A stretch of 64,000 nucleotides of DNA from Escherichia phage LF82-41, in the sequence record PV660463; one strand, written 5' to 3'. Position numbers and translations under genes: made by a program. The notes below the pieces were generated by a model, which made no database searches, had not been told where the DNA came from, and saw only the letters and a program-made list of their open reading frames with translations. Shown piece after piece: positions 9,313-40,236 of the stretch (the first letter of the stretch is position 1; every line of letters begins with the position of its first letter).

Positions 9313-10413
9313 TTACGCTGTGAAGATTTTATCCCACATCGCAACAACTGCATCTCGGTTATACTTCTTCCATACTGCTTCAGCACGTTTAACTCGAGCT
9401 TCGTATGTGTCAGTGAATTCTAATACAGCTTTTGTGTAAAGCGCAACTACTTCTTTCTTAGGAGTAGAGGAATCAATTTCTACACGCACAGTATCTGGGT
9501 CGTATTCGAATGTCGCGTGCGGATAATCCTTAAAAACTAACTGAATCACAGGGACACCTTTAGAGATGGCTTCAATAGAACTATTCTCTACCGTACCCGT
9601 GTCAGGACACGTATTGATAAGTGCTTTAGCTGTTTTAAGACGTTCCATGATTTCACTGTGTGGAGCATCAATAATAACAGGATACTTAGCCGGCGGTGCC
9701 CATTTACTAGGACAGTATCCTGCACCATTTTCGCCTAGTGCTTTAATCGCTTCAAGAGCAACATCAGTACGACGCATTTTAGTGTCATAACGTTGTGCAC
9801 TAATAATCAGATCAGTCGCCGGAAGAACTTCAGGTTTATCATTCAAACAAATAACCGGATAATCTTCGGCTTCAAACAACGGATTTGCTCGCCAATAATC
9901 ATAATCAATTTTGCCAGTCAGACCTGAAGTCATATAACAATATTTGCGTTCAAATTCACGGAAGGCTTTAGTAGGAGCATAACTCTTACCACCGTTCTTA
10001 TGAATTTGAATAGTCTGGTCCCAAATTTGAACAATGCCACGAGATACCGGTTCAAATGGTGTTGCCATAAAATTCTTATGAACTTTAGAGAGACCTGCGT
10101 CTTTAATTGCCTGAACGGTTAGTTTGGTCGGTTCCATTGTAACAACGAAATCGTACTCATTAATGCCGGCTAGTTCAACAATCTTACGAGCCATAGTATA
10201 ACTCATACCTAGACTGAATTTAGTCAGATGACCAACAGGATGATGATTAACCTTCCAGTCACCAAACGTGTCATTATCAAAGCCGATATAATCAATATCA
10301 GCACCGATGGACACAAGATATTTCAATACATTTAAATGTACTGCTTCAAGACCACCTTGTACACGTTCTGGGTTAAATGGGACTGCGCGAGATGGGATAA
10401 ACATAACTTTCAT
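9313..10413 (-). CDS. GT-B fold glycosyltransferase (GT4-like), candidate DNA sugar transferase
   Basis: 366 aa; N-terminal MKVMFIPSRAVPFNPERVQGG.E resembles GT4 N-terminus; C-terminal TGTVENSSIEAISKGVPVI resembles EX7E donor-binding motif; occupies the T4 gene 60/mobA slot. Confidence 0.55.
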   Translation of the reverse strand: MKVMFIPSRAVPFNPERVQGGLEAVHLNVLKYLVSIGADIDYIGFDNDTFGDWKVNHHPVGHLTKFSLGMSYTMARKIVELAGINEYDFVVTMEPTKLTVQAIKDAGLSKVHKNFMATPFEPVSRGIVQIWDQTIQIHKNGGKSYAPTKAFREFERKYCYMTSGLTGKIDYDYWRANPLFEAEDYPVICLNDKPEVLPATDLIISAQRYDTKMRRTDVALEAIKALGENGAGYCPSKWAPPAKYPVIIDAPHSEIMERLKTAKALINTCPDTGTVENSSIEAISKGVPVIQLVFKDYPHATFEYDPDTVRVEIDSSTPKKEVVALYTKAVLEFTDTYEARVKRAEAVWKKYNRDAVVAMWDKIFTA

Positions 10414-30933: not shown

Positions 30934-31482
30934 TTAACGAGCCCATTTAATGATTTCTGTAATCAAATTATTACGTTCGCTTGCATTAAATCCTATAACT
31001 TTGTTAGAACCATCATGATTAAGTAATTGATACGTTTGGATTTTGTTATGAATTGCAAACTCTTCAAAATGTGAAATGACTGTATTAAAACCGAATGAAG
31101 ACAAAGTAATAAGGTCGTCTTCAAAACTTTCAGTCATTTCGTTACGTGTTAAAATAATTGTGAACACATCATGGTTTTGGCAAAGACGAACATAATCCTG
31201 TTCATAAACGTCAAGAACCGAGTCCGCATCTTGTCGAATACGTCCATAAACCCAGTTACTAATATATCCACGGTCTAATAGATAAATCTTAGTAGGGTCT
31301 AAATAATTCAACATCGTTTCGAAACAGCCAACTTCATTTCGAGACTTAACATCGAAACGCCCATCAACTGTTCGTTTAGGGAAATCAATCTTTACATATC
31401 TTTCACTAATTTCCATTATGTCATTAATGAAAGTTGTTTTACCAGCATTATCCGGCCCGTCTACTAAAATAATTTTAGCCAT
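30934..31482 (-). CDS. P-loop kinase-like protein (182 aa)
   Basis: Walker A ILVDGPDNAGKTT at N-terminus; sits in T4 beta-gt slot. Confidence 0.55.
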   Translation of the reverse strand: MAKIILVDGPDNAGKTTFINDIMEISERYVKIDFPKRTVDGRFDVKSRNEVGCFETMLNYLDPTKIYLLDRGYISNWVYGRIRQDADSVLDVYEQDYVRLCQNHDVFTIILTRNEMTESFEDDLITLSSFGFNTVISHFEEFAIHNKIQTYQLLNHDGSNKVIGFNASERNNLITEIIKWAR

Positions 31483-31483
31483 T

Positions 31484-32383
31484 TTATTCCTCGATTACGA
31501 CATCTTCGTATTTAGGTATATTATACGGCGAAGAAATTAAAGCATTAAAGTAGATGAACTCACCAAGACCTGGATGGAATACTTCTTCAGGATTTTCGAA
31601 ATATTGAATCTTCGGACGTCCTTTAAGAATTTGATAGTACTCAGTTTTAGTTGGATTAAAAATTCGAATCAGCGCTTCTTCAGGATACTTATTTCTGTCG
31701 AAACTATTATTTGGATCAGTTATATAAAGCGGTTGACCTAATTGAATTGCGCATTCAACAACTTGTTCAAAACGATAGCATGGGTCACTAATTCGAAATG
31801 GATGAAAAATACCATCTAGATGAATAGGAGCCAAATCACCTACAAGACGCTGCATGACGGAAGGACGTATAACTTTCTGCGTTACGATAATCTTATTACC
31901 ATCTGCACCTGCGTTAACCAGCACTTCTTTTTGACGTTCATTCAACACAGTAGTTTGAAGTGAACGATTAACAGACAACATGTCGGTTTTTAAGAATTCA
32001 TCAATATAAAAACGTGGTTTATTAGGGTCTGCAGTGATATTGAAATTGAATTCTACATCAAAAGCGCCGTCATATCCAGTGATATCTGTGATTAGAAAAT
32101 CACAATCATAATAAGCAATTAATGAATCAACCACAAATTCATTTTCAGACCAAAAATATTTACGAGTATTATACGCGTTATCTTTATACCATAATGGAAC
32201 AAACTTAAATTCTGGGAAAAGACGTTCGCATTCTTTAATATCAGATGCATTACGTGGATATGTAATCACATCACCCGGATTAGCACGGTGCAAATGAAGT
32301 TGGAAGTTGCCATCCTTAAGGATAGCATACTGTCCAGTTTCATAAGACCGCATACTCAAGATAGGTACGCGGAAAATAGCCAT
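31484..32383 (-). CDS. hypothetical protein (299 aa), beta-gt slot
   Basis: ORF track; tight packing with neighbours; no motif recognised. Confidence 0.55.
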   Translation of the reverse strand: MAIFRVPILSMRSYETGQYAILKDGNFQLHLHRANPGDVITYPRNASDIKECERLFPEFKFVPLWYKDNAYNTRKYFWSENEFVVDSLIAYYDCDFLITDITGYDGAFDVEFNFNITADPNKPRFYIDEFLKTDMLSVNRSLQTTVLNERQKEVLVNAGADGNKIIVTQKVIRPSVMQRLVGDLAPIHLDGIFHPFRISDPCYRFEQVVECAIQLGQPLYITDPNNSFDRNKYPEEALIRIFNPTKTEYYQILKGRPKIQYFENPEEVFHPGLGEFIYFNALISSPYNIPKYEDVVIEE

Positions 32384-33099
32384 TAGTCAAGGAATCCTTT
32401 AACATAATCAAAATCACGTTCAAACACATGGGCACTTACCATGGTATGAGTATAATCACCAACTTCTACACCACATTCGTTAGCGATATAATGAAGTAAT
32501 TTTCCTTGGAGATAAAAATCCAACTGCATAACAACAGCACAGTTCTGGGAACGCATATGACAGTGGGTATAAAGCTTACCGTCACGAATATAATAAGTCA
32601 CTGAGTCAGTACATGGATATTCAAGCGTTTCGTCCGAATCAAGCAAAGCCTGATCAGAACTTTCTAAAATTTGGAACACAACTCTTCGAGAGTTAGGCTT
32701 CTCTTTAAGTTCTTTTAGAAGAGCCGGTAATTGGGCCGCAATGCGAGGACCATAGAAAGTGTTGAAGTTCGCCGGCAAAGCATCCGATTTTGGTTTAGAA
32801 ATAAATTTAGCGACATTAGGATATGCCTTAAACGCTTCTTCTGCATCAGTACCACCAGAAATCATAAACTTCCAGAAGTCTTCAGCATATTCATAAGAGA
32901 TGCGGTTAATACGTGGGTCGGTCATTTTGAATGATGATGGAGTGTCAACAACTACTGTCATAGACCCAATTTCATTACAACGTCCAATACGAGAATCAGT
33001 TACGAATTCTGGGTTTTCTAAAATTTCACGATTGACTGCTTTAAATGCGGATTGAAAATCTGCGGCTTTGATATATTTCATTGTGTTATGTTTTCCCAT
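32383..33099 (-). CDS. thymidylate synthase-family pyrimidine hydroxymethylase-like enzyme (divergent gp42-like)
   Basis: 238 aa; NSRRVVFQI and EYPCTDSVTYYIRDGKLYTHCHMRSQNCAVV align with T4 gp42 DSRRGIMIY / FMCTNTVQYLIRDKKINAVVNMRSND. Confidence 0.65.
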   Translation of the reverse strand: MGKHNTMKYIKAADFQSAFKAVNREILENPEFVTDSRIGRCNEIGSMTVVVDTPSSFKMTDPRINRISYEYAEDFWKFMISGGTDAEEAFKAYPNVAKFISKPKSDALPANFNTFYGPRIAAQLPALLKELKEKPNSRRVVFQILESSDQALLDSDETLEYPCTDSVTYYIRDGKLYTHCHMRSQNCAVVMQLDFYLQGKLLHYIANECGVEVGDYTHTMVSAHVFERDFDYVKGFLD

Positions 33100-33141
33100 G
33101 TTTACCTCAATACAATTTATTATATACTCGATTCGTAAAGC

Positions 33142-33381
33142 TTATTTGAATTTCTTGGCAATGTTGGTATACCGTAAAGCTTCAGCATCGATACTTCCAA
33201 GAACACTGTGAAGAAATGCATCAGCGTAGTATTCCAATCGAACAGGTTCTTTAATCATTTTAGCCGCTTTGGTTTCAAACAGGCCCATAAGGGCCTTTTT
33301 AAGAATTTGTTCGCTGCTGTTAATTTTTATAGTCAAAATCTCTTCGTTAAGTTGGTGGTTAAAAGTTTTTCTAGAAATCAT
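33142..33381 (-). CDS. hypothetical protein (79 aa)
   Basis: ORF track. Confidence 0.45.
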   Translation of the reverse strand: MISRKTFNHQLNEEILTIKINSSEQILKKALMGLFETKAAKMIKEPVRLEYYADAFLHSVLGSIDAEALRYTNIAKKFK

Positions 33382-34538
33382 TCTGGGTACCTCAAAGCGT
33401 CATCAGAGTTAGTTATATCAATAATAGATATAGAGTTTTCTGCTAACCCGTTTTTAGATAACTGACGTTTATAATATCTTTCACAATATGTACACGTCGT
33501 CCCACAGATTTCATTAGCACAATCGAAATCTGGATGTCTGAACCACCTTTTTTCTAAAAAGCCATCTAACAAAGAGGTTTCAATATTTACTGTATGTGAA
33601 AACTCAGTTTCATTTTCAAGAGTGAAAATAGTCTCTAAAGGCTTCCACAGTTCTAACAAATTACCTTCAAACTTTTCAGAAGCGTATGCTTCAAGAACTT
33701 TCAAAATGTAGTCTGTGCTACCTGTACGTCCTGAAACTTTGAATTGAGTGATACCAATATCATTATAAAGTTTCAAATCTTGAGGACGAACAAAACGAGT
33801 TCTCAACCAGTTAAATGGGTCTGTATCACGAGCTTTAATACAGTGCTGCATAGGATACCCATTTAAGGATTTAGCATCATCAGCGGTAACATCAGTACTA
33901 TGGAAAATATAGCAAGAGTCACGATAACTACAATGTGTTGTATACCCTTTACCAGCATTAGAACAGAACTCATTTACAAGAACTTCAAATATTATATTGT
34001 TCTTATTGCAAAACTCTGCTGCACGCTTCAGGAAAGAAACTGAACGGTTCTTATGAATTCCGCAACAGACCTTTTTGATGTTATATTGGTCGTGCAAGTA
34101 TTTGATTTGAGTTACAGCATCGACATGTAGAATTGTTGAAACTTCAATCTCAATATCTTTATTGACTTCACGAACAATTTCCATAACAACAGGGTTAGCG
34201 ATAGTAATACGCCATACGCCTATTGACCAAAGATACTGAACATAATCCTGAATAGCTTTCTTCTTCCACTCAACTAGTTCTCTTTTTGAACCAGGATTTA
34301 TCGTGTTGAGTGTATAGTTAAAGCAAATACCTAATTCGTTACAACGTTTAACGTAGTCTTCTAACATCTTTTTGTCAACGTCAGGAAGCCTAAAATCAGG
34401 TCTGGCTGCTACAAAAGCCATTTCTCTTGTAGAGCCATATACTTCGTTTATCAAGCTATTAGGATAAGTTTTATTGAGCTCTACGATTTTATCAAGAAGA
34501 GCTAAATCAAAATTCGTTCCGATTTTAAAAGTATTCAT
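33378..34538 (-). CDS. Cys-rich protein (386 aa), possible Fe-S/U32-like enzyme
   Basis: C-terminal C-x3-C-x3-C-x2-C (CANEICGTTCTYC); internal EFCSNAGKGYTTHCSY loosely resembles U32 signature; tentative. Confidence 0.5.
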   Translation of the reverse strand: MNTFKIGTNFDLALLDKIVELNKTYPNSLINEVYGSTREMAFVAARPDFRLPDVDKKMLEDYVKRCNELGICFNYTLNTINPGSKRELVEWKKKAIQDYVQYLWSIGVWRITIANPVVMEIVREVNKDIEIEVSTILHVDAVTQIKYLHDQYNIKKVCCGIHKNRSVSFLKRAAEFCNKNNIIFEVLVNEFCSNAGKGYTTHCSYRDSCYIFHSTDVTADDAKSLNGYPMQHCIKARDTDPFNWLRTRFVRPQDLKLYNDIGITQFKVSGRTGSTDYILKVLEAYASEKFEGNLLELWKPLETIFTLENETEFSHTVNIETSLLDGFLEKRWFRHPDFDCANEICGTTCTYCERYYKRQLSKNGLAENSISIIDITNSDDALRYPE

Positions 34539-34595
34539 TTTTTTTGCATCTCGCGTTAATTGATGCGATGGTTTTTGCAGGTCTTACTTAAATTA

Positions 34596-34997
34596 TTATA
34601 GATTCGGTTTATATGATTTAAATGTTTCGAATTCGCCTTTATTCATAAGAGCTTTGAATTCGTCAGGACGCATAGCTTTGTCGTCGATAATCCAATCATA
34701 TACTGGTTTATGTGTTAGCAAATTATGGTACTTCAAACCAATGTTTTCCAAGTTCTGAATCAGACTTGGGAGAATGTCAATTGCTATACGTCCAGGACCT
34801 ACTGACTTCATACCGCGAGCAGTGTAAAGCGTTATGGTATGCCCTGCATCATACAGGGCATTAATGGCGGTCACCATTTCGACGTCTGGTTTGAAGTTCA
34901 CGTAATCACGATTGTTATTCCACTCTGTTATACAATCATCGACATCAAAACAAAGATTAAGCATGTTTTCTACACGGTGCATTAGATTCGTTCCCAT
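34596..34997 (-). CDS. HAD-superfamily phosphatase-like protein (133 aa)
   Basis: N-terminal FDVDDCIT resembles HAD motif I. Confidence 0.5.
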   Translation of the reverse strand: MGTNLMHRVENMLNLCFDVDDCITEWNNNRDYVNFKPDVEMVTAINALYDAGHTITLYTARGMKSVGPGRIAIDILPSLIQNLENIGLKYHNLLTHKPVYDWIIDDKAMRPDEFKALMNKGEFETFKSYKPNL

Positions 34998-36667
34998 TGA
35001 TGAGTGATATCGCCACCGATTGGACGATAAGAAACACCAGTTTCTTTATCAGTTAGTACCCATTTACCAGGATTTTTTGTAATCAGAGTAGCCGTTACAG
35101 GTTCTGCTACGTCATAACTAATAGAGCCGTCTTGAAGTACACGGCCCATGTTATGTAATTGCTTAGTCAGAAGTTCCATACCTTTATAATATGCGGCTAC
35201 CGCTTTAAGTGGATTATTCTTGAAATAACCACCTAATGCAATCCAGATAATTGCTACAGCCAAATGATGATACTCGTTAAACGAACTCATCTTTCCATAT
35301 TTGTAAACTAATGGATTGATGTTAATAGTCACATTACAAGTTGTTTCATCAATAGTAAACTGTCCCCAGGTCGGATTAGCATTGAATTCATCATAACCTG
35401 AAACAGCATAAAGCACTTTAGCTTCATCATATAATTTTGGCCCGTAAATCTTGGTTTCACCAAAATATCCACGAGGGTCGATAAACTTGACTTCGCCGTT
35501 ATCAGTAATCATAGTATTACTGAAGTTTGGGTCGCCGTGAATAACAGAGTACTGTCCCTGAGAACGGTTATGATAACGAATAAGATGTTCTAAAGCTTGT
35601 TTCAACATTGGCTTCAGACGTCCAATCTTAGTGTAGTTCACGTGTGTGATTTTACCAAATGAATCAATCAATGGCTGAATGCTTTCACAACGATCAATAA
35701 CTTTCGTATAGAACTCTTTAGTGAAATCACGGCGAACAGTTTCAGGACTTACAAAATAAGTGTCTGTGCTGAATTTCAGTGCATCTAAAATTGCATCAAC
35801 AATTTGTGGACGAGCAAGACTTGATTTGGATTTAATATATTCAAATGCCGGCTTACCTTTAATACGTTCCATTTCAAAATTATTTTCATTTACCGAAACT
35901 AACTGTGGAACTGAATCTGATTTCACTTTCAAATACCACGAAATCTCATCTTTCTGAAGAGCCCGTCCCTGTTCGGTTAATGCGAATTTAGTTACAGTTT
36001 CTTCACCAATTTCAACTGCATTAAAACTACGATTAAGTTCACGAACTTCATGAGCTTTTTCAAGTTTAGGCATATCACCTAAATCAATTATATTCATAAG
36101 CTCTGATTTATTGAATGCGCCGCTGTAAAGGAATTCTACGAAATCACGTCCTTTGCAGTATTCATGAATTTCCTCATCAGTAGAACCCATATAGAATTCC
36201 CAGTCTTTGAACTGATAAATTCCTACAACATTACCACCTGTTGAACCTACGTTAGTGATATTTTCACCGTCGAAATTATATCGACATTCGTCACCCTTAA
36301 CATAGATTGCGTTAACATTCCAAGACCATGAACCAAAATCAGGAATAATATCGCACCAGTTAACAACTACGTTATGGCCGTCTAAATCTTTATGTAATTT
36401 AGCAAGAGCATAAGCAGAACCATACGCTTCATCAACTGTACGAATAGTCACATTGAACCCTTCTTGCTCACAATAAGCTCGAACGGTTTCAGCAAATTTT
36501 GAATGAACTACTACAATAATTTCATCTGCGCCAAGGTCAGAATAAATTGTATACAAATTGCTCAGAATAGTGTCTTGTTTATAGTTAACAAGCACCTTAG
36601 GAATATGGTGAGTAATTGGATATAAACGAGTTGCTAATCCAGCACCAAGAATAACAGCTTTTTTCAT
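34982..36667 (-). CDS. bifunctional sugar-phosphate nucleotidyltransferase / APH-like kinase
   Basis: 561 aa; N-terminal MKKAVILGAGLATRLYP...PKVLV NTP-transferase signature; C-terminal VIHGDPNFSNTMITDNGEVKFIDPRGYFG kinase motif. Confidence 0.65.
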   Translation of the reverse strand: MKKAVILGAGLATRLYPITHHIPKVLVNYKQDTILSNLYTIYSDLGADEIIVVVHSKFAETVRAYCEQEGFNVTIRTVDEAYGSAYALAKLHKDLDGHNVVVNWCDIIPDFGSWSWNVNAIYVKGDECRYNFDGENITNVGSTGGNVVGIYQFKDWEFYMGSTDEEIHEYCKGRDFVEFLYSGAFNKSELMNIIDLGDMPKLEKAHEVRELNRSFNAVEIGEETVTKFALTEQGRALQKDEISWYLKVKSDSVPQLVSVNENNFEMERIKGKPAFEYIKSKSSLARPQIVDAILDALKFSTDTYFVSPETVRRDFTKEFYTKVIDRCESIQPLIDSFGKITHVNYTKIGRLKPMLKQALEHLIRYHNRSQGQYSVIHGDPNFSNTMITDNGEVKFIDPRGYFGETKIYGPKLYDEAKVLYAVSGYDEFNANPTWGQFTIDETTCNVTININPLVYKYGKMSSFNEYHHLAVAIIWIALGGYFKNNPLKAVAAYYKGMELLTKQLHNMGRVLQDGSISYDVAEPVTATLITKNPGKWVLTDKETGVSYRPIGGDITHQWERI

Positions 36668-36708
36668 GTTGAAGTCCTCATCGGTAAGTAGGTGTATTGT
36701 ACACTATT

Positions 36709-36852
36709 CTAGTTAAAGCATTCATACTTTGCCTGTAGACCAATCATAATCCATCCAATTACAAGTGTTGGAATCATTACCGGAGCCGTTAAGCTCCAGT
36801 AGATAGTCATGACAAGCATCAATAGTAAAAGTCCTATTGTTATTGCTTTCAT
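36709..36852 (-). CDS. small membrane protein (47 aa)
   Basis: Manual translation MKAITIGLLLLMLVMTIYWSLTAPVMIPTLVIGWIMIGLQAKYECFN; ATGA overlap with SIS gene stop. Confidence 0.35.
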   Translation of the reverse strand: MKAITIGLLLLMLVMTIYWSLTAPVMIPTLVIGWIMIGLQAKYECFN

Positions 36853-37484
36853 TGCTCGCCTCGTAACATGGCACCTAGTGCACCGCCTGGATGGAACTTA
36901 AGGAAATCATTAGAGGTAAATCCACGTTCAGATGAAAGGTTGATAGCGAACGTATCGATAAGCGCTAACAACAATGTAGTAGACATCGTCGGAGCTAAAG
37001 AGTTCTCGTCAACTTCTACCGCGATACCGGTACAGAACGTATAATCAAAAAGAGCTTCGTATTCTTGTGGAATGTCAGGGTTACAATGTAACAGAATCTG
37101 TTTAACCTGAGGACGAATCATACGAAGATGTTTAGCAACACCTATCATTTCTTCAGTCTTACCGGAACGACTGATGTGAACTAATACATCATTAGGTGCA
37201 ATAAATCCTGCGTCACCATGAGAATAATGCCCAGTGTTCAAATACATGCTAGGAATACCTAGTGAAGCAAATGTCTCAGAAGCTTTAGTTGCAATATTAG
37301 CATTCTTACCAACACCTGTAATAATTACTCGGCTTTCATAATTACTCAGTCCAGGGCGTCGAAGAGTTTCTAGAATAGCATTATAACGAGCAGGGTTTTG
37401 ACTAATTACTTTGGCCATAGCGGCCAAAGAAGAAGCTTGTTTTATGATTGCGTCAATAGCGATAGTAATAGGAGTAGTTTTCAT
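36849..37484 (-). CDS. SIS-domain sugar-phosphate isomerase (arabinose-5-phosphate isomerase-like)
   Basis: 211 aa; SIS features; C-terminal FHPGGALG resembles KdsD/KpsF-type API motif. Confidence 0.6.
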   Translation of the reverse strand: MKTTPITIAIDAIIKQASSLAAMAKVISQNPARYNAILETLRRPGLSNYESRVIITGVGKNANIATKASETFASLGIPSMYLNTGHYSHGDAGFIAPNDVLVHISRSGKTEEMIGVAKHLRMIRPQVKQILLHCNPDIPQEYEALFDYTFCTGIAVEVDENSLAPTMSTTLLLALIDTFAINLSSERGFTSNDFLKFHPGGALGAMLRGEQ

Positions 37485-37524
37485 ATTTCTCTCATTTAAT
37501 TAGTTTACCGTCCATGGCATTATA

Positions 37525-40236
37525 TCAAAAATCAAACATATCGAACAGAGATGCTTTCTTCTCGTAATCGAGTTTCGCTGCTGATGTGAATCCTTCAAGT
37601 GGTTTAATAAATGTCTTCTCAAGGAGAACAGTGTAGTCCATCCAATGAAGTACGTCGTCTTTAATTAAATCTGTGATTTCAGTACCAGAAGGCCATGCGA
37701 TACATTTATCACCGAACGGGTTTCCTTCACGTAAAGGCAGAACATATACTTTTTCACCTTCTACAACTTGTGGAGCATCAATATTACCTTTGATAGCTCG
37801 GTTATATGTCAGAATTCCACGAATATGGAACGGGCATTTGGGACCAGGGAATCCACCTACATCATATTTAGCAATGTTATTCGCAGAAGATACCGACGCG
37901 ATGCTAATATAATTCAATTGACGGAATTCTTTTTCAAACTCTTTAAAATATTCTTGTAATGATTCTTCACCTTCCTGAAGCATACGACGAATACATTCCT
38001 TAAGAGCTTTCTGTACTGCTTTAGGAGTCGAAGATTTCTGAGTCTCTAGACCCATGATTTTGAGTTTAGGCTCAGCGTAACGAGTACCTTCCATATCCCA
38101 CACGTTTAATGCATAACGTTTCTTACCAGTCCAGAATCCGCCAATACCTTTAGAACCAAGCGGAGGACCAGCGATAGCTTCTCGGTCCATGAACATTAAG
38201 TGTTGTTTATTGTTCATGTATTCACACATTTCACGGAAACCTTTATCAATAGCTGGTTCCATACGTTCACGTGCGAACTTATCTAAGAAGTCTACCCAAT
38301 GGTTGGTATCACGGAATTTAGATTCACCAACCTTATCGATAATTTTATCAGCAGATACGTAAATAGAGTCTGTATCACCATAAAGAACGAAAGCTTCACC
38401 TTCTGTACCACAAACTTCATTCAGATATTCATTAACTTTACGTTCAATCCACTGTAAAGCCATTTGACCAAATGTTGTGATTGCAGTAGCATTACGCAAA
38501 TCATAATAACGGAACCAAACGTTACCAAGTGCACCATAAAGCGAGTTGATGAGCAATTTACGGTTAATTTGTGCAGTCATACCTGCAACTTCAGTACGTT
38601 GAGCTCTAAACAACATTTCATTAAGAGATTTAGCAGACAACTTTTTAATCTTTTCTTTAATCTCATCGCTGAAGTCGAAACGATAATCAACATCTAATGG
38701 TTCGTCAACAGAAAGATTAGGATTATGCAATGCCTCTTTAATTATTTCACCATTACGTTGAGCTGCAAGCATGTAACCTTTATGTTCTTTACGTTGATTA
38801 AAGACCTTAGTGATTTCAGTTGGAACTACACCATCACGGTCTTTATAATACATCATGCCGTTAGGAGAGCAACTGTACACATCTGAAGGACGTTCAGCGA
38901 TTGCGTTAATATAATCATGCAGTGGAGCTACTTTAAACGTTCCTGCTATTGTTTCCGGGCTAATATTCACTTGGCGAATAATACTTGGATACAGGGATGT
39001 AAGGTCGAAACTCATTACATATTTGTATCGATTTGGAATAGGTTCCTTAACAAAAGCACCTGGATAAGGTTGAACCGGGTGAGAACGACCTTGTGGAATC
39101 ACCTTGCTCTGCTCTTTAAGGCTATTAAAAATAATAGCATCCCATGTTTTAATTGGGCTAAACACAGATTGAATCTGTATCTTAGCATAATAACCCATGT
39201 CCAAACTCAAGTTGATGAACTGACGCTTAGCATCAATTTGCAATACACGATACACGTCGATAATGTTATAAGAAATATACCGTTGGTGATTGCTTTCACG
39301 AAGCTTAGAAATAGGGCCGTCATATTTCAGTTTACCAACATTCAATTCAAATTCTGAAATGTAATCCAGAGAATACGACGGTTGATTGGTAAAAGAGAAT
39401 TTTTTGTAAAGGTCAATGTAATCAAGAACAGAGATACCGAACATTGTAATGATTTCACGAGAACCATACATGTTTTCGATAACTTTAACACGAGTTTTAC
39501 GATGTGGTGATAAACGTTTCGCAGTAGATTCGCCAAAAATATTCTTGATTCGGTTATACACATATGGAATATCAAATGACTCAACGTTCCATCCAGTCAA
39601 AATGACAGGAGTTTTCTGTTGCCAGAAGTTGAGATATTCCATCAACAATTCTTTTTCGTTATCGAACGGCATATAAATGATTTTATCGATAATTTCAGAT
39701 GGAACTTCATCACCGCCTTGTTCTTGAAGCTTAGCCGCAATTTCGATAGACCATTCTTCTACATTACCATACGGAGAATTCAATAGATCAAATACGTAGA
39801 ACCTGTCGTCAATTGAGTCATAATGGGTGATAGCATCAATCGGATGTTTTGCTTGTGACGGCTCAGGGAACCCATCCGGAGATGTTACTTCGATGTCGAA
39901 GTTAGCCACACGAATTTTTGTATGGTCGTATTTGATTTCATAGTTATAAGTGTCAGACAAATACGCCAATTTGAAATCGTCCATGCCAAGTGCTTCAAGT
40001 CCGATATCTTCCATGCGTTTAATCCATTGGGAGGCATCACGCATATTAGCGAACAACTTACGAGTACACGGTTTACCGTAGATATCGAAATATTTCGTAG
40101 CCTGACTTTCTGGACAATGAGCAAACAGTGATGGTTTATATTCTACTTCACGAGTACGTTCACGGCCATTAGAATCGATGTAACGTTCAAAAATTGAATC
40201 ACCAATCTGTTCAACCGTTAAGTAAAATTCTTTCAT
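37525..40236 (-). CDS. 43: DNA polymerase (family B)
   Basis: 903 aa; exo motifs (FDIE), pol motifs (SLYPS, YGDTDS); T4 gp43 size and synteny. Confidence 0.95.
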   Translation of the reverse strand: MKEFYLTVEQIGDSIFERYIDSNGRERTREVEYKPSLFAHCPESQATKYFDIYGKPCTRKLFANMRDASQWIKRMEDIGLEALGMDDFKLAYLSDTYNYEIKYDHTKIRVANFDIEVTSPDGFPEPSQAKHPIDAITHYDSIDDRFYVFDLLNSPYGNVEEWSIEIAAKLQEQGGDEVPSEIIDKIIYMPFDNEKELLMEYLNFWQQKTPVILTGWNVESFDIPYVYNRIKNIFGESTAKRLSPHRKTRVKVIENMYGSREIITMFGISVLDYIDLYKKFSFTNQPSYSLDYISEFELNVGKLKYDGPISKLRESNHQRYISYNIIDVYRVLQIDAKRQFINLSLDMGYYAKIQIQSVFSPIKTWDAIIFNSLKEQSKVIPQGRSHPVQPYPGAFVKEPIPNRYKYVMSFDLTSLYPSIIRQVNISPETIAGTFKVAPLHDYINAIAERPSDVYSCSPNGMMYYKDRDGVVPTEITKVFNQRKEHKGYMLAAQRNGEIIKEALHNPNLSVDEPLDVDYRFDFSDEIKEKIKKLSAKSLNEMLFRAQRTEVAGMTAQINRKLLINSLYGALGNVWFRYYDLRNATAITTFGQMALQWIERKVNEYLNEVCGTEGEAFVLYGDTDSIYVSADKIIDKVGESKFRDTNHWVDFLDKFARERMEPAIDKGFREMCEYMNNKQHLMFMDREAIAGPPLGSKGIGGFWTGKKRYALNVWDMEGTRYAEPKLKIMGLETQKSSTPKAVQKALKECIRRMLQEGEESLQEYFKEFEKEFRQLNYISIASVSSANNIAKYDVGGFPGPKCPFHIRGILTYNRAIKGNIDAPQVVEGEKVYVLPLREGNPFGDKCIAWPSGTEITDLIKDDVLHWMDYTVLLEKTFIKPLEGFTSAAKLDYEKKASLFDMFDF

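Follow-up and report, generated by a model that had tools for sequence, protein, structure and literature searches.

Genes at the locus

The DNA analysed here (the window, to which all positions refer) is a 64,000-nt stretch from Escherichia phage LF82-41 (record PV660463), a Mosigvirus (RB69-like T-even phage). Megablast of 32383-37600 retrieved 155 phage records at 95–99% identity, all of them from T-even phages of the Mosigvirus type that infect E. coli and Shigella. A reading frame of 211 codons occupies 36849..37484 on the minus strand, with its ATG at 37484 and a TGA at 36851-36849. The initial annotation had placed a 211-aa SIS protein here, and both the frame and Pfam bear this out: a single SIS domain (PF01380) spans residues 51-181 of the protein with E = 9.6e-10, and neither a CBS domain nor any other domain besides SIS was found in it by Pfam, nor an HTH. 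It had also set the gene next to a DNA polymerase gene, and a 903-aa polymerase ORF (37525..40236) does lie immediately upstream on the same strand, separated from the SIS gene by 40 bp. The same annotation had the protein ending with FHPGGALG; the motif does occur, at residues 197-204, but seven further residues (AMLRGEQ) come after it. Judged by sequence comparison this is no chance reading frame, since the protein is identical at 206 of 211 positions (98%) to RB69 ORF055c (gp55, NP_861745.1), matches phrog_5670 (‘arabinose 5-phosphate isomerase’, PHROGs v4) over its full length with E = 2.6e-116, and has homologues in 269 phage records. ORF055c occupies the same place in RB69, between gene 43 and the UDP-arabinose genes; the protein studied here departs from it in just five conservative substitutions, and comparing the two sequences revealed no functional difference. 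Gp83 of Acinetobacter phage DLP3 is, with RB69 gp55, among the closest known counterparts.

Downstream of the SIS gene a tightly packed cluster follows in the same orientation, the spacing between genes running from -16 to 57 nt, with ATGA overlaps. The features discussed here are:

37525..40236, minus strand: gene 43 DNA polymerase, 903 aa, family B; so named in all related records and a landmark outside the sugar pathway
36849..37484, minus strand: putative D-arabinose-5-phosphate isomerase, SIS-only, 211 aa; orthologue of RB69 ORF055c/gp55
36709..36852, minus strand: 47-aa hydrophobic small ORF, orthologue of Bas47 bas47_0152 (phrog_3610, E = 6.8e-27)
34982..36667, minus strand: 561-aa bifunctional enzyme, RB69 gp52:53, analogue of HY126 AfhE (Pfam and NCBIfam)
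34596..34997, minus strand: 133-aa HAD-type phosphatase, RB69 gp51, AfhF analogue (TIGR01689 capsule biosynthesis phosphatase, 2e-13; phrog_1238)
33378..34538, minus strand: peptidase-U32-family protein, 386 aa, RB69 gp50 (Pfam Peptidase_U32, 7.3e-11; weak UbiU; phrog_5757)
33142..33381, minus strand: 79-aa ORF, RB69 ORF049c homologue (phrog_8601, 2.9e-48)
32383..33099, minus strand: thymidylate-synthase-family enzyme, 238 aa, RB69 gp48 (Pfam Thymidylat_synt, 2.4e-15)
31484..32383, minus strand: putative DNA arabinosyltransferase 1, 299 aa, RB69 gp46:47 (phrog_3891, 1.1e-155)
30934..31482, minus strand: thymidylate-kinase-like nucleotide kinase, 182 aa, RB69 gp45 (phrog_761, 1.7e-45; Bas47 annotation)
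9313..10413, minus strand: putative DNA arabinosyltransferase 2, 366 aa, RB69 ORF003c homologue, 99% identical (361/366)

The 47-aa ORF (translation MKAITIGLLLLMLVMTIYWSLTAPVMIPTLVIGWIMIGLQAKYECFN) is a CDS in the annotation of phage AlbertHofmann; its first 4 nt (ATGA) are shared with the end of the SIS gene, so that start and stop codons overlap. The 561-aa enzyme has an N-terminal NTP_transferase domain (Pfam, residues 3-99) and weak kinase-family matches at 308-409; it is also matched by NCBIfam nucleotidyltransferase models and is 98.8% identical to RB69 ORF052c+053c. Its gene overlaps that of the HAD phosphatase by 16 nt. The name ‘phosphoheptose isomerase’, seen at the locus in RefSeq too, is the PHROGs label (phrog_1238) of this 133-aa phosphatase. 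Table 1 of PMC13326640 lists RB69 gp50 as a ‘sugar or heterocycle reductase’ and gp48 as a dCMP to 5-hydroxy-dCMP synthase, the latter marked as experimentally confirmed. The 299-aa ORF, at the position equivalent to RB69 ORF046c+047c, is intact as a single ORF here and gave no match in Pfam; the DNA arabinosyltransferase role is taken for gp46:47 from PMC13326640 and for ORF003c/gp3 from PMC6024577 and PMC13326640. The thymidylate-kinase-like gene is followed by uvsX, and the 366-aa ORF sits between rIIA and the topoisomerase gene. With an AfhE-like enzyme, a HAD phosphatase, a TS-like enzyme, a gp46:47-like ORF and a gp3 homologue (99%) all present, the neighbours of the SIS gene make up the arabinosyl-5-hydroxycytosine DNA-modification module that has been published (RB69 gp45-55 plus gp3; HY126 Afh).

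A scan of 32300-37700 yielded 15 promoter-like sites, where 20 +/- 5.6 would be expected. The minus strand of this region has a single terminator-like site (37262..37249), which falls within the SIS gene and in none of the intergenic gaps, and the number of such sites is as expected by chance. The arrangement is compatible with co-transcription downstream of gene 43.

Affiliation and active site of the SIS protein

To place the protein within the SIS superfamily we compared it with KdsD, GutQ and GmhA of E. coli K-12, as the initial annotation had proposed. In BLASTP, KdsD matched at E = 1e-32 (35% identity over 192 aa) and GutQ at 6e-24, and GmhA gave no significant match (E = 6.7). The top NCBIfam models were likewise those of arabinose-5-phosphate isomerases (APIs), namely KpsF/GutQ (8.9e-32), KdsD (3.9e-30) and GutQ (2.6e-22); the next families are RpiR-type regulators at 1e-6 or worse (HexR 2.9e-6, AlsR 8e-5), a gap of about 15 orders of magnitude, and no GmhA model was among the NCBIfam matches. 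Every NCBIfam score stays below its full-length cut-off (for TIGR00393, 110.7 bits against a curated 203.7), because the CBS half is absent and only the SIS half of the models is covered. A sequence search of the PDB returned four chains only: 3etn from B. fragilis (9.6e-25), 5uqi, which is c3406 of E. coli CFT073 (1.8e-22), 2xhz, the SIS domain of KdsD (2e-18), and 3fxa from Listeria (9.1e-13).

The predicted structure gave a similar ranking. An AlphaFold2 model of the monomer, built on a 31-sequence alignment, reached a pLDDT of 95.1 and a pTM of 0.90, and its best Foldseek match was 2xhz (TM 0.91 on the target, rmsd 1.9 Å), followed by 3etn and then 5uqi, whose entry title describes c3406 in complex with A5P. 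Ranks 1-6 are all APIs and 3fxa comes later (7e-12), after which the E-values drop by ~5 orders of magnitude to the effector domains of RpiR, MurR and NanR; the first GmhA stands at rank 40 (TM about 0.59, rmsd 5.6 Å). Both by sequence and by modelled fold, the SIS protein is thus closer to characterised APIs than to other SIS families (GmhA, GlmS, RpiR, MurQ, PHI).

We take the active site of KdsD, as defined by mutagenesis and structural work, to consist of K59, H88, E111, E152 and H193. These residues align with K60, H89, E112, E157 and H198 of the phage protein in both pairwise and multiple alignments. A set of 22 sequences has only 26 invariant columns, and all five residues are among them; the set comprises 17 proteins of the phage clade, the least similar at 38% identity, two Bacteroidota KpsF proteins, KdsD, GutQ and P0118, a SIS-only homologue that is more divergent and lies outside a phage context. 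The five are again among 29 invariant columns in the 31-sequence set; this conservation is independent of the list of residues that we assumed for KdsD. In APIs the C-terminal His is expected to complete the active site of a neighbouring subunit within a homotetramer. The invariant columns include H198, P199, G201, L203 and G204 of the H-P-x-G-x-L-G motif. Private to the phage clade are several substitutions near the catalytic His (H86, H103, R106, H133, C134 and D159), position 86 being His in the phage clade and Glu in KdsD and GutQ. As far as alignment and model can tell, the protein has intact active-site residues, a SIS fold and an API affiliation. The KdsD/KpsF-type motif and the API-like affiliation asserted in the initial annotation are therefore supported by BLASTP, NCBIfam, the active-site columns and the fold ranking alike, and GmhA, which it had weighed as the contrary outcome, was the better match in none of BLASTP, NCBIfam and Foldseek.

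The domain architecture is not that of KdsD and GutQ, however. The phage protein shares their SIS domain at 35% identity, with all five active-site residues conserved, but it lacks their C-terminal pair of CBS domains (~120 aa) and stops just past HPGGALG. In this it resembles c3406 (5uqi) and the B. fragilis enzyme (3etn), which are also SIS-only proteins of about 200 aa without CBS domains, share the C-terminal H-P-G-G-x-L-G motif, and are both, we assume, active APIs. It is therefore a member of the API lineage outside the two-part KpsF/GutQ architecture, and belongs with the SIS-only APIs. The resemblance has limits: identity to these two proteins is only about 28-30% in the structural alignment, and the phage clade differs from them in an extra ~8-residue segment before the core and in having His86 in place of Glu. 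Moreover, c3406 and the B. fragilis API are cellular enzymes for capsule or Kdo synthesis, whereas the phage enzyme is predicted to serve DNA modification.

The API reading is supported but not new. As early as 2003 the RB69 record described ORF055c as ‘similar to bacterial polysialic acid capsular expression protein GutQ’; ‘arabinose 5-phosphate isomerase’ is the name now given to the gene in many records of GenBank and RefSeq, and a BASEL-collection record has ‘putative phosphosugar isomerase involved in UDP-arabinose biosynthesis’. Besides GenBank annotation and phrog_5670, the reading stands in at least two papers (PMC6024577, PMC13326640), the first of which put forward ORF055c and ORF53_52c as genes of UDP-arabinose synthesis (Thomas et al. 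2018).

Linkage, fusions and distribution

The association of the SIS gene with the nucleotidyltransferase gene recurs on two other contigs. On a 310-kb jumbo-phage contig, a SIS gene (45% identical) is followed by a small ORF and then by a 552-aa NTP-transferase/APH protein, and a 163-kb T4-like contig has a SIS gene with that of a 510-aa NTP-transferase protein directly after it, the two lying between gp2 and ribonucleotide reductase, which is another genome position than in LF82-41. Since the two genes stay linked at different genome positions, the pair moves as a unit. We considered the small ORF as a conserved third partner and rejected it: in the jumbo phage it encodes a soluble, Cys-rich product of 92 aa, which bears no relationship to the hydrophobic 47-aa peptide of LF82-41.

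With the 561-aa enzyme as query, an exhaustive HMMER search yielded 1,406 relatives; of the best 150 family representatives, 18 possess an additional SIS domain. The 18 fused SIS domains match both the phage SIS protein and KdsD/GutQ, with a single, marginal match to GmhA among them; the five catalytic residues are kept in 17, and in one the C-terminal His region is unaligned. Pfam architectures among the relatives comprise SIS+NT/kinase, HAD+NT/kinase and HAD+SIS+NT+kinase (890-1011 aa), and the sources of fusions include the fungus Hyaloraphidium curvatum (KAI9028707.1), a transcriptome of the slime mould Ceratiomyxa fruticulosa and large metagenomic contigs (P0142). A single Butyrivibrio fusion had been noted in 2018, and those found here extend that observation. 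The HAD+SIS+NT+kinase proteins hold in one polypeptide the activities that the phage encodes as three adjacent genes; unlike the phage proteins they are cellular, partly eukaryotic and uncharacterised, and their SIS domain is ~30% identical to the phage protein. The fusions tie isomerase, kinase, phosphatase and nucleotidyltransferase into one pathway.

The SIS gene is nevertheless an optional part of the module. By tblastn the SIS protein occurs in 269 phage records and the 561-aa enzyme in 371, about 100 records having the latter and lacking the former. An example is Dhakavirus IME281, where the order is polymerase, imm, 166-aa protein, AfhE-like enzyme, HAD, kinase, TS-like enzyme, GT and uvsX; this otherwise similar locus contains no SIS gene and no U32 gene. 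The 166-aa protein was considered as a divergent SIS protein and rejected, as it is not SIS. Since ~100 phage records carry the 561-aa enzyme without SIS, the pathway does not depend on a phage isomerase. Gram-negative hosts themselves produce A5P, for Kdo. Given this supply, and given that the module occurs without SIS in some phages, the phage isomerase is probably a booster of flux and supply, adding to the A5P from host KdsD and GutQ, and not an essential step. Taking about 6.2e4 cytosines per genome, and assuming that each bears 1-2 arabinoses and that the burst size is 100-200, we put the demand roughly at 0.6-2.5e7 arabinose units per infected cell, which is several-fold above the host's own demand for Kdo per generation. 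A recent capture of the gene from the host was considered and rejected: none of 5,426 complete E. coli genomes gave a megablast match to the SIS gene, and even the closest cellular proteins share only about 37% identity with its product.

Proposed pathway and alternative readings

Chemical work on RB69 DNA has shown that it carries arabinose (Thomas et al. 2018, PMC6024577), and the modified base has since been revised to 5-hydroxycytosine, the TS-like enzyme making 5-hydroxy-dCMP (2026 NAR paper, PMC13326640). The latter paper proposes that Ru5P is converted to Araf5P by gp55, to Araf1,5P2 by the kinase domain of gp52:53, to Araf1P by gp51 and finally to UDP-Araf by the nucleotidyltransferase domain of gp52:53; in its Table 1, gp55 is a structural prediction and stands outside the proteins marked as experimentally confirmed. 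It also cites He et al. 2026 for the reported conversion of A5P to UDP-arabinose in vitro by AfhE and AfhF of HY126. In LF82-41, the SIS protein would divert D-ribulose-5-phosphate from the host pentose-phosphate pathway to D-arabinose-5-phosphate during infection. The kinase part of the 561-aa enzyme would then phosphorylate C1 to give Ara-1,5-P2, the HAD phosphatase would take off the 5-phosphate to give Ara-1-P, and the nucleotidyltransferase domain of the 561-aa enzyme would turn this into UDP-arabinofuranose. Two phage glycosyltransferases would put the arabinose onto 5-hydroxycytosine in phage DNA, where the arabinosylated base would block host nucleases, so that the phage may escape bacterial restriction. 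The isomerase reaction itself is what sequence and model together suggest for the SIS protein, and orthology to RB69 at about 98% suggests, by analogy, that LF82-41 virion DNA carries arabinosylated 5-hydroxycytosine. Overall we consider it very likely that the ORF encodes a single-domain D-arabinose-5-phosphate isomerase, orthologous to RB69 gp55, that feeds arabinosylation of the phage DNA. The initial annotation had left the purpose of the arabinose-5-phosphate unsaid; it would lie in supplying UDP-arabinose to DNA arabinosylation and not in the making of Kdo or capsule.

An isomerase of the API lineage could instead act on another sugar phosphate, for example in a glucose-6-P/fructose-6-P conversion, and feed a different step or phage need. 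The SIS-only Listeria protein 3fxa, which we take to be a glucose-6-phosphate isomerase and not an API, is a detectable homologue both by sequence (9.1e-13) and by fold (Foldseek 7e-12); since it acts on another sugar phosphate, family resemblance does not guarantee the API substrate. The private substitutions of the phage clade near the catalytic His (H86, H103, R106, H133, C134 and D159) could point the same way. We nonetheless regard this as improbable, because the SIS protein is much closer to the APIs 3etn (9.6e-25) and 5uqi (1.8e-22) than to 3fxa and retains all five API catalytic residues. Furthermore, arabinose is the product of the pathway in RB69 DNA (PMC6024577), and the downstream enzyme of HY126 is reported to use A5P, in the account given by PMC13326640.

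The protein could also be a non-catalytic sensor or regulator that binds a sugar phosphate, resembling the effector domains of RpiR, MurR and NanR without a DNA-binding domain. SIS domains of these regulators do occur among the fold matches, and HexR (2.9e-6) and AlsR (8e-5) give weak NCBIfam matches, but all of them trail the API matches by some 5 orders of magnitude or more, with rmsd above 4 Å. The lack of an HTH domain, the strict conservation of all five catalytic residues (K, H, E, E, H) throughout the phage clade, as for an enzyme, and the fusion to biosynthetic enzymes, which argues for catalysis, make a regulator very improbable. A GmhA-type sedoheptulose-7-phosphate isomerase is effectively refuted by BLASTP (E = 6.7), by NCBIfam (no GmhA model) and by the fold ranking (rmsd 5.6 Å against 1.9 Å for KdsD), the shared SIS fold (rank 40) being all that GmhA and the phage protein have in common, with different active-site residues in GmhA and no HPGGALG motif, and the ‘phosphoheptose isomerase’ of some RefSeq records at the locus belonging to the neighbouring 133-aa HAD phosphatase (phrog_1238), not to the SIS gene.

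Beyond the reading of the SIS protein as an API for DNA arabinosylation, we advance a bolder and rather doubtful extension. The loss of the CBS domains, the clade-specific substitutions by the catalytic histidine and the repeated SIS/kinase-pyrophosphorylase/phosphatase fusions could mean that the isomerase is no mere duplicate of host KdsD but is deregulated (e.g. insensitive to feedback by CMP-Kdo) and works in a physical complex that channels Ru5P to UDP-arabinofuranose, and that the four-activity cassette is an undescribed cellular route of D-arabinose activation. If this were true, some bacteria, fungi and amoebae would possess an undescribed route to activated D-arabinose.

As an isomerase that feeds DNA arabinosylation, the SIS protein would be the entry point at which the module taps the host pentose-phosphate pathway, and its gene would mark LF82-41 as a phage that arabinosylates its DNA. 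Whether its DNA is arabinosylated governs how sensitive a phage is to restriction enzymes, CRISPR-Cas and type IV systems, so that the trait matters for phage therapy and phage engineering.

Residues private to the phage SIS clade

The 211-aa SIS protein (36849-37484, minus strand), a putative D-arabinose-5-phosphate isomerase (API), was compared with its cellular counterparts. Near-invariant residues at H86, H103, R106, H133, C134 and D159 are private to the phage SIS clade: cellular APIs differ from it at 86, 103, 106, 133-134 and 159. The position of H86, three residues before the catalytic His89, is occupied by Glu in the E. coli APIs KdsD and GutQ, and by Asp or Glu in most SIS domains fused to an AfhE-like enzyme.

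Genes around the SIS gene

The following features lie in the same region:
33378-34538, minus strand: peptidase-U32-family protein, 386 aa (RB69 gp50)
34596-34997, minus strand: HAD-type phosphatase, 133 aa (NCBIfam TIGR01689, capsule biosynthesis phosphatase, 2e-13)
36709-36852, minus strand: strongly hydrophobic 47-aa ORF, MKAITIGLLLLMLVMTIYWSLTAPVMIPTLVIGWIMIGLQAKYECFN (phrog_3610 match)

The PHROGs family matched by the HAD phosphatase, phrog_1238, bears the label 'phosphoheptose isomerase'. RefSeq puts that label on the equivalent gene of Dhakavirus IME281, and several Mosigvirus records likewise have it at this locus. No SIS domain is present in the 133-aa protein. The label appears to be a misannotation that has been propagated. 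It is a possible trap for tests at this locus that set an API against the phosphoheptose isomerase GmhA.

Flanked by the SIS gene and the gene for the 561-aa enzyme (nucleotidyltransferase plus kinase), the 47-aa ORF has a start codon that overlaps the stop codon of the SIS gene in an ATGA. Its equivalent is named 'putative transmembrane protein' in one record, and the RB69 record has a shorter ORF, ORF054c, at the matching site. A jumbo-phage contig also has a small ORF in this place, but the two are unrelated. Each of the two genes that the original RB69 GenBank record shows as split, ORF052c/053c and ORF046c/047c, is a single intact ORF here, of 561 aa (34982-36667, minus strand) and 299 aa (31484-32383, minus strand) respectively. 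This agrees with published work that attributes the splits in RB69 to sequencing errors. Finally, the U32-family protein weakly matches UbiU, an O2-independent hydroxylase, and the published pathway (PMC13326640) allots its steps without gp50.

Modules without the SIS gene and four-domain fusions

The comparison locus was:
NC_055740.1, 140238-153908: Enterobacteria phage vB_EcoM_IME281 module

A homologue of the 561-aa enzyme (43% identical) occurs with HAD, thymidylate-synthase-like and glycosyltransferase genes in phages of several genera, IME281 included, at the same site between gene 43 and uvsX. The SIS isomerase is missing from the IME281 module and from those of about 100 further phage records, among them Dhakavirus, Klebsiella T-even phages and some members infecting or named for Vibrio and Synechococcus. 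The otherwise similar IME281 module lacks both the SIS and the U32-family genes. Presumably, such phages use host KdsD and GutQ, or else activate another sugar.

Among the relatives of the 561-aa enzyme (HMMER; top 150 representatives examined, 1,406 relatives in all), P0140, P0142, P0164, P0170 and others are HAD+SIS+nucleotidyltransferase+kinase fusions of 890-1011 aa, from the fungus Hyaloraphidium curvatum, the slime mould Ceratiomyxa fruticulosa and metagenomic contigs (largest 409 kb). We know of no description of a pathway from ribulose-5-phosphate to NDP-arabinose in these organisms. One such polypeptide would unite every proposed step of that route.
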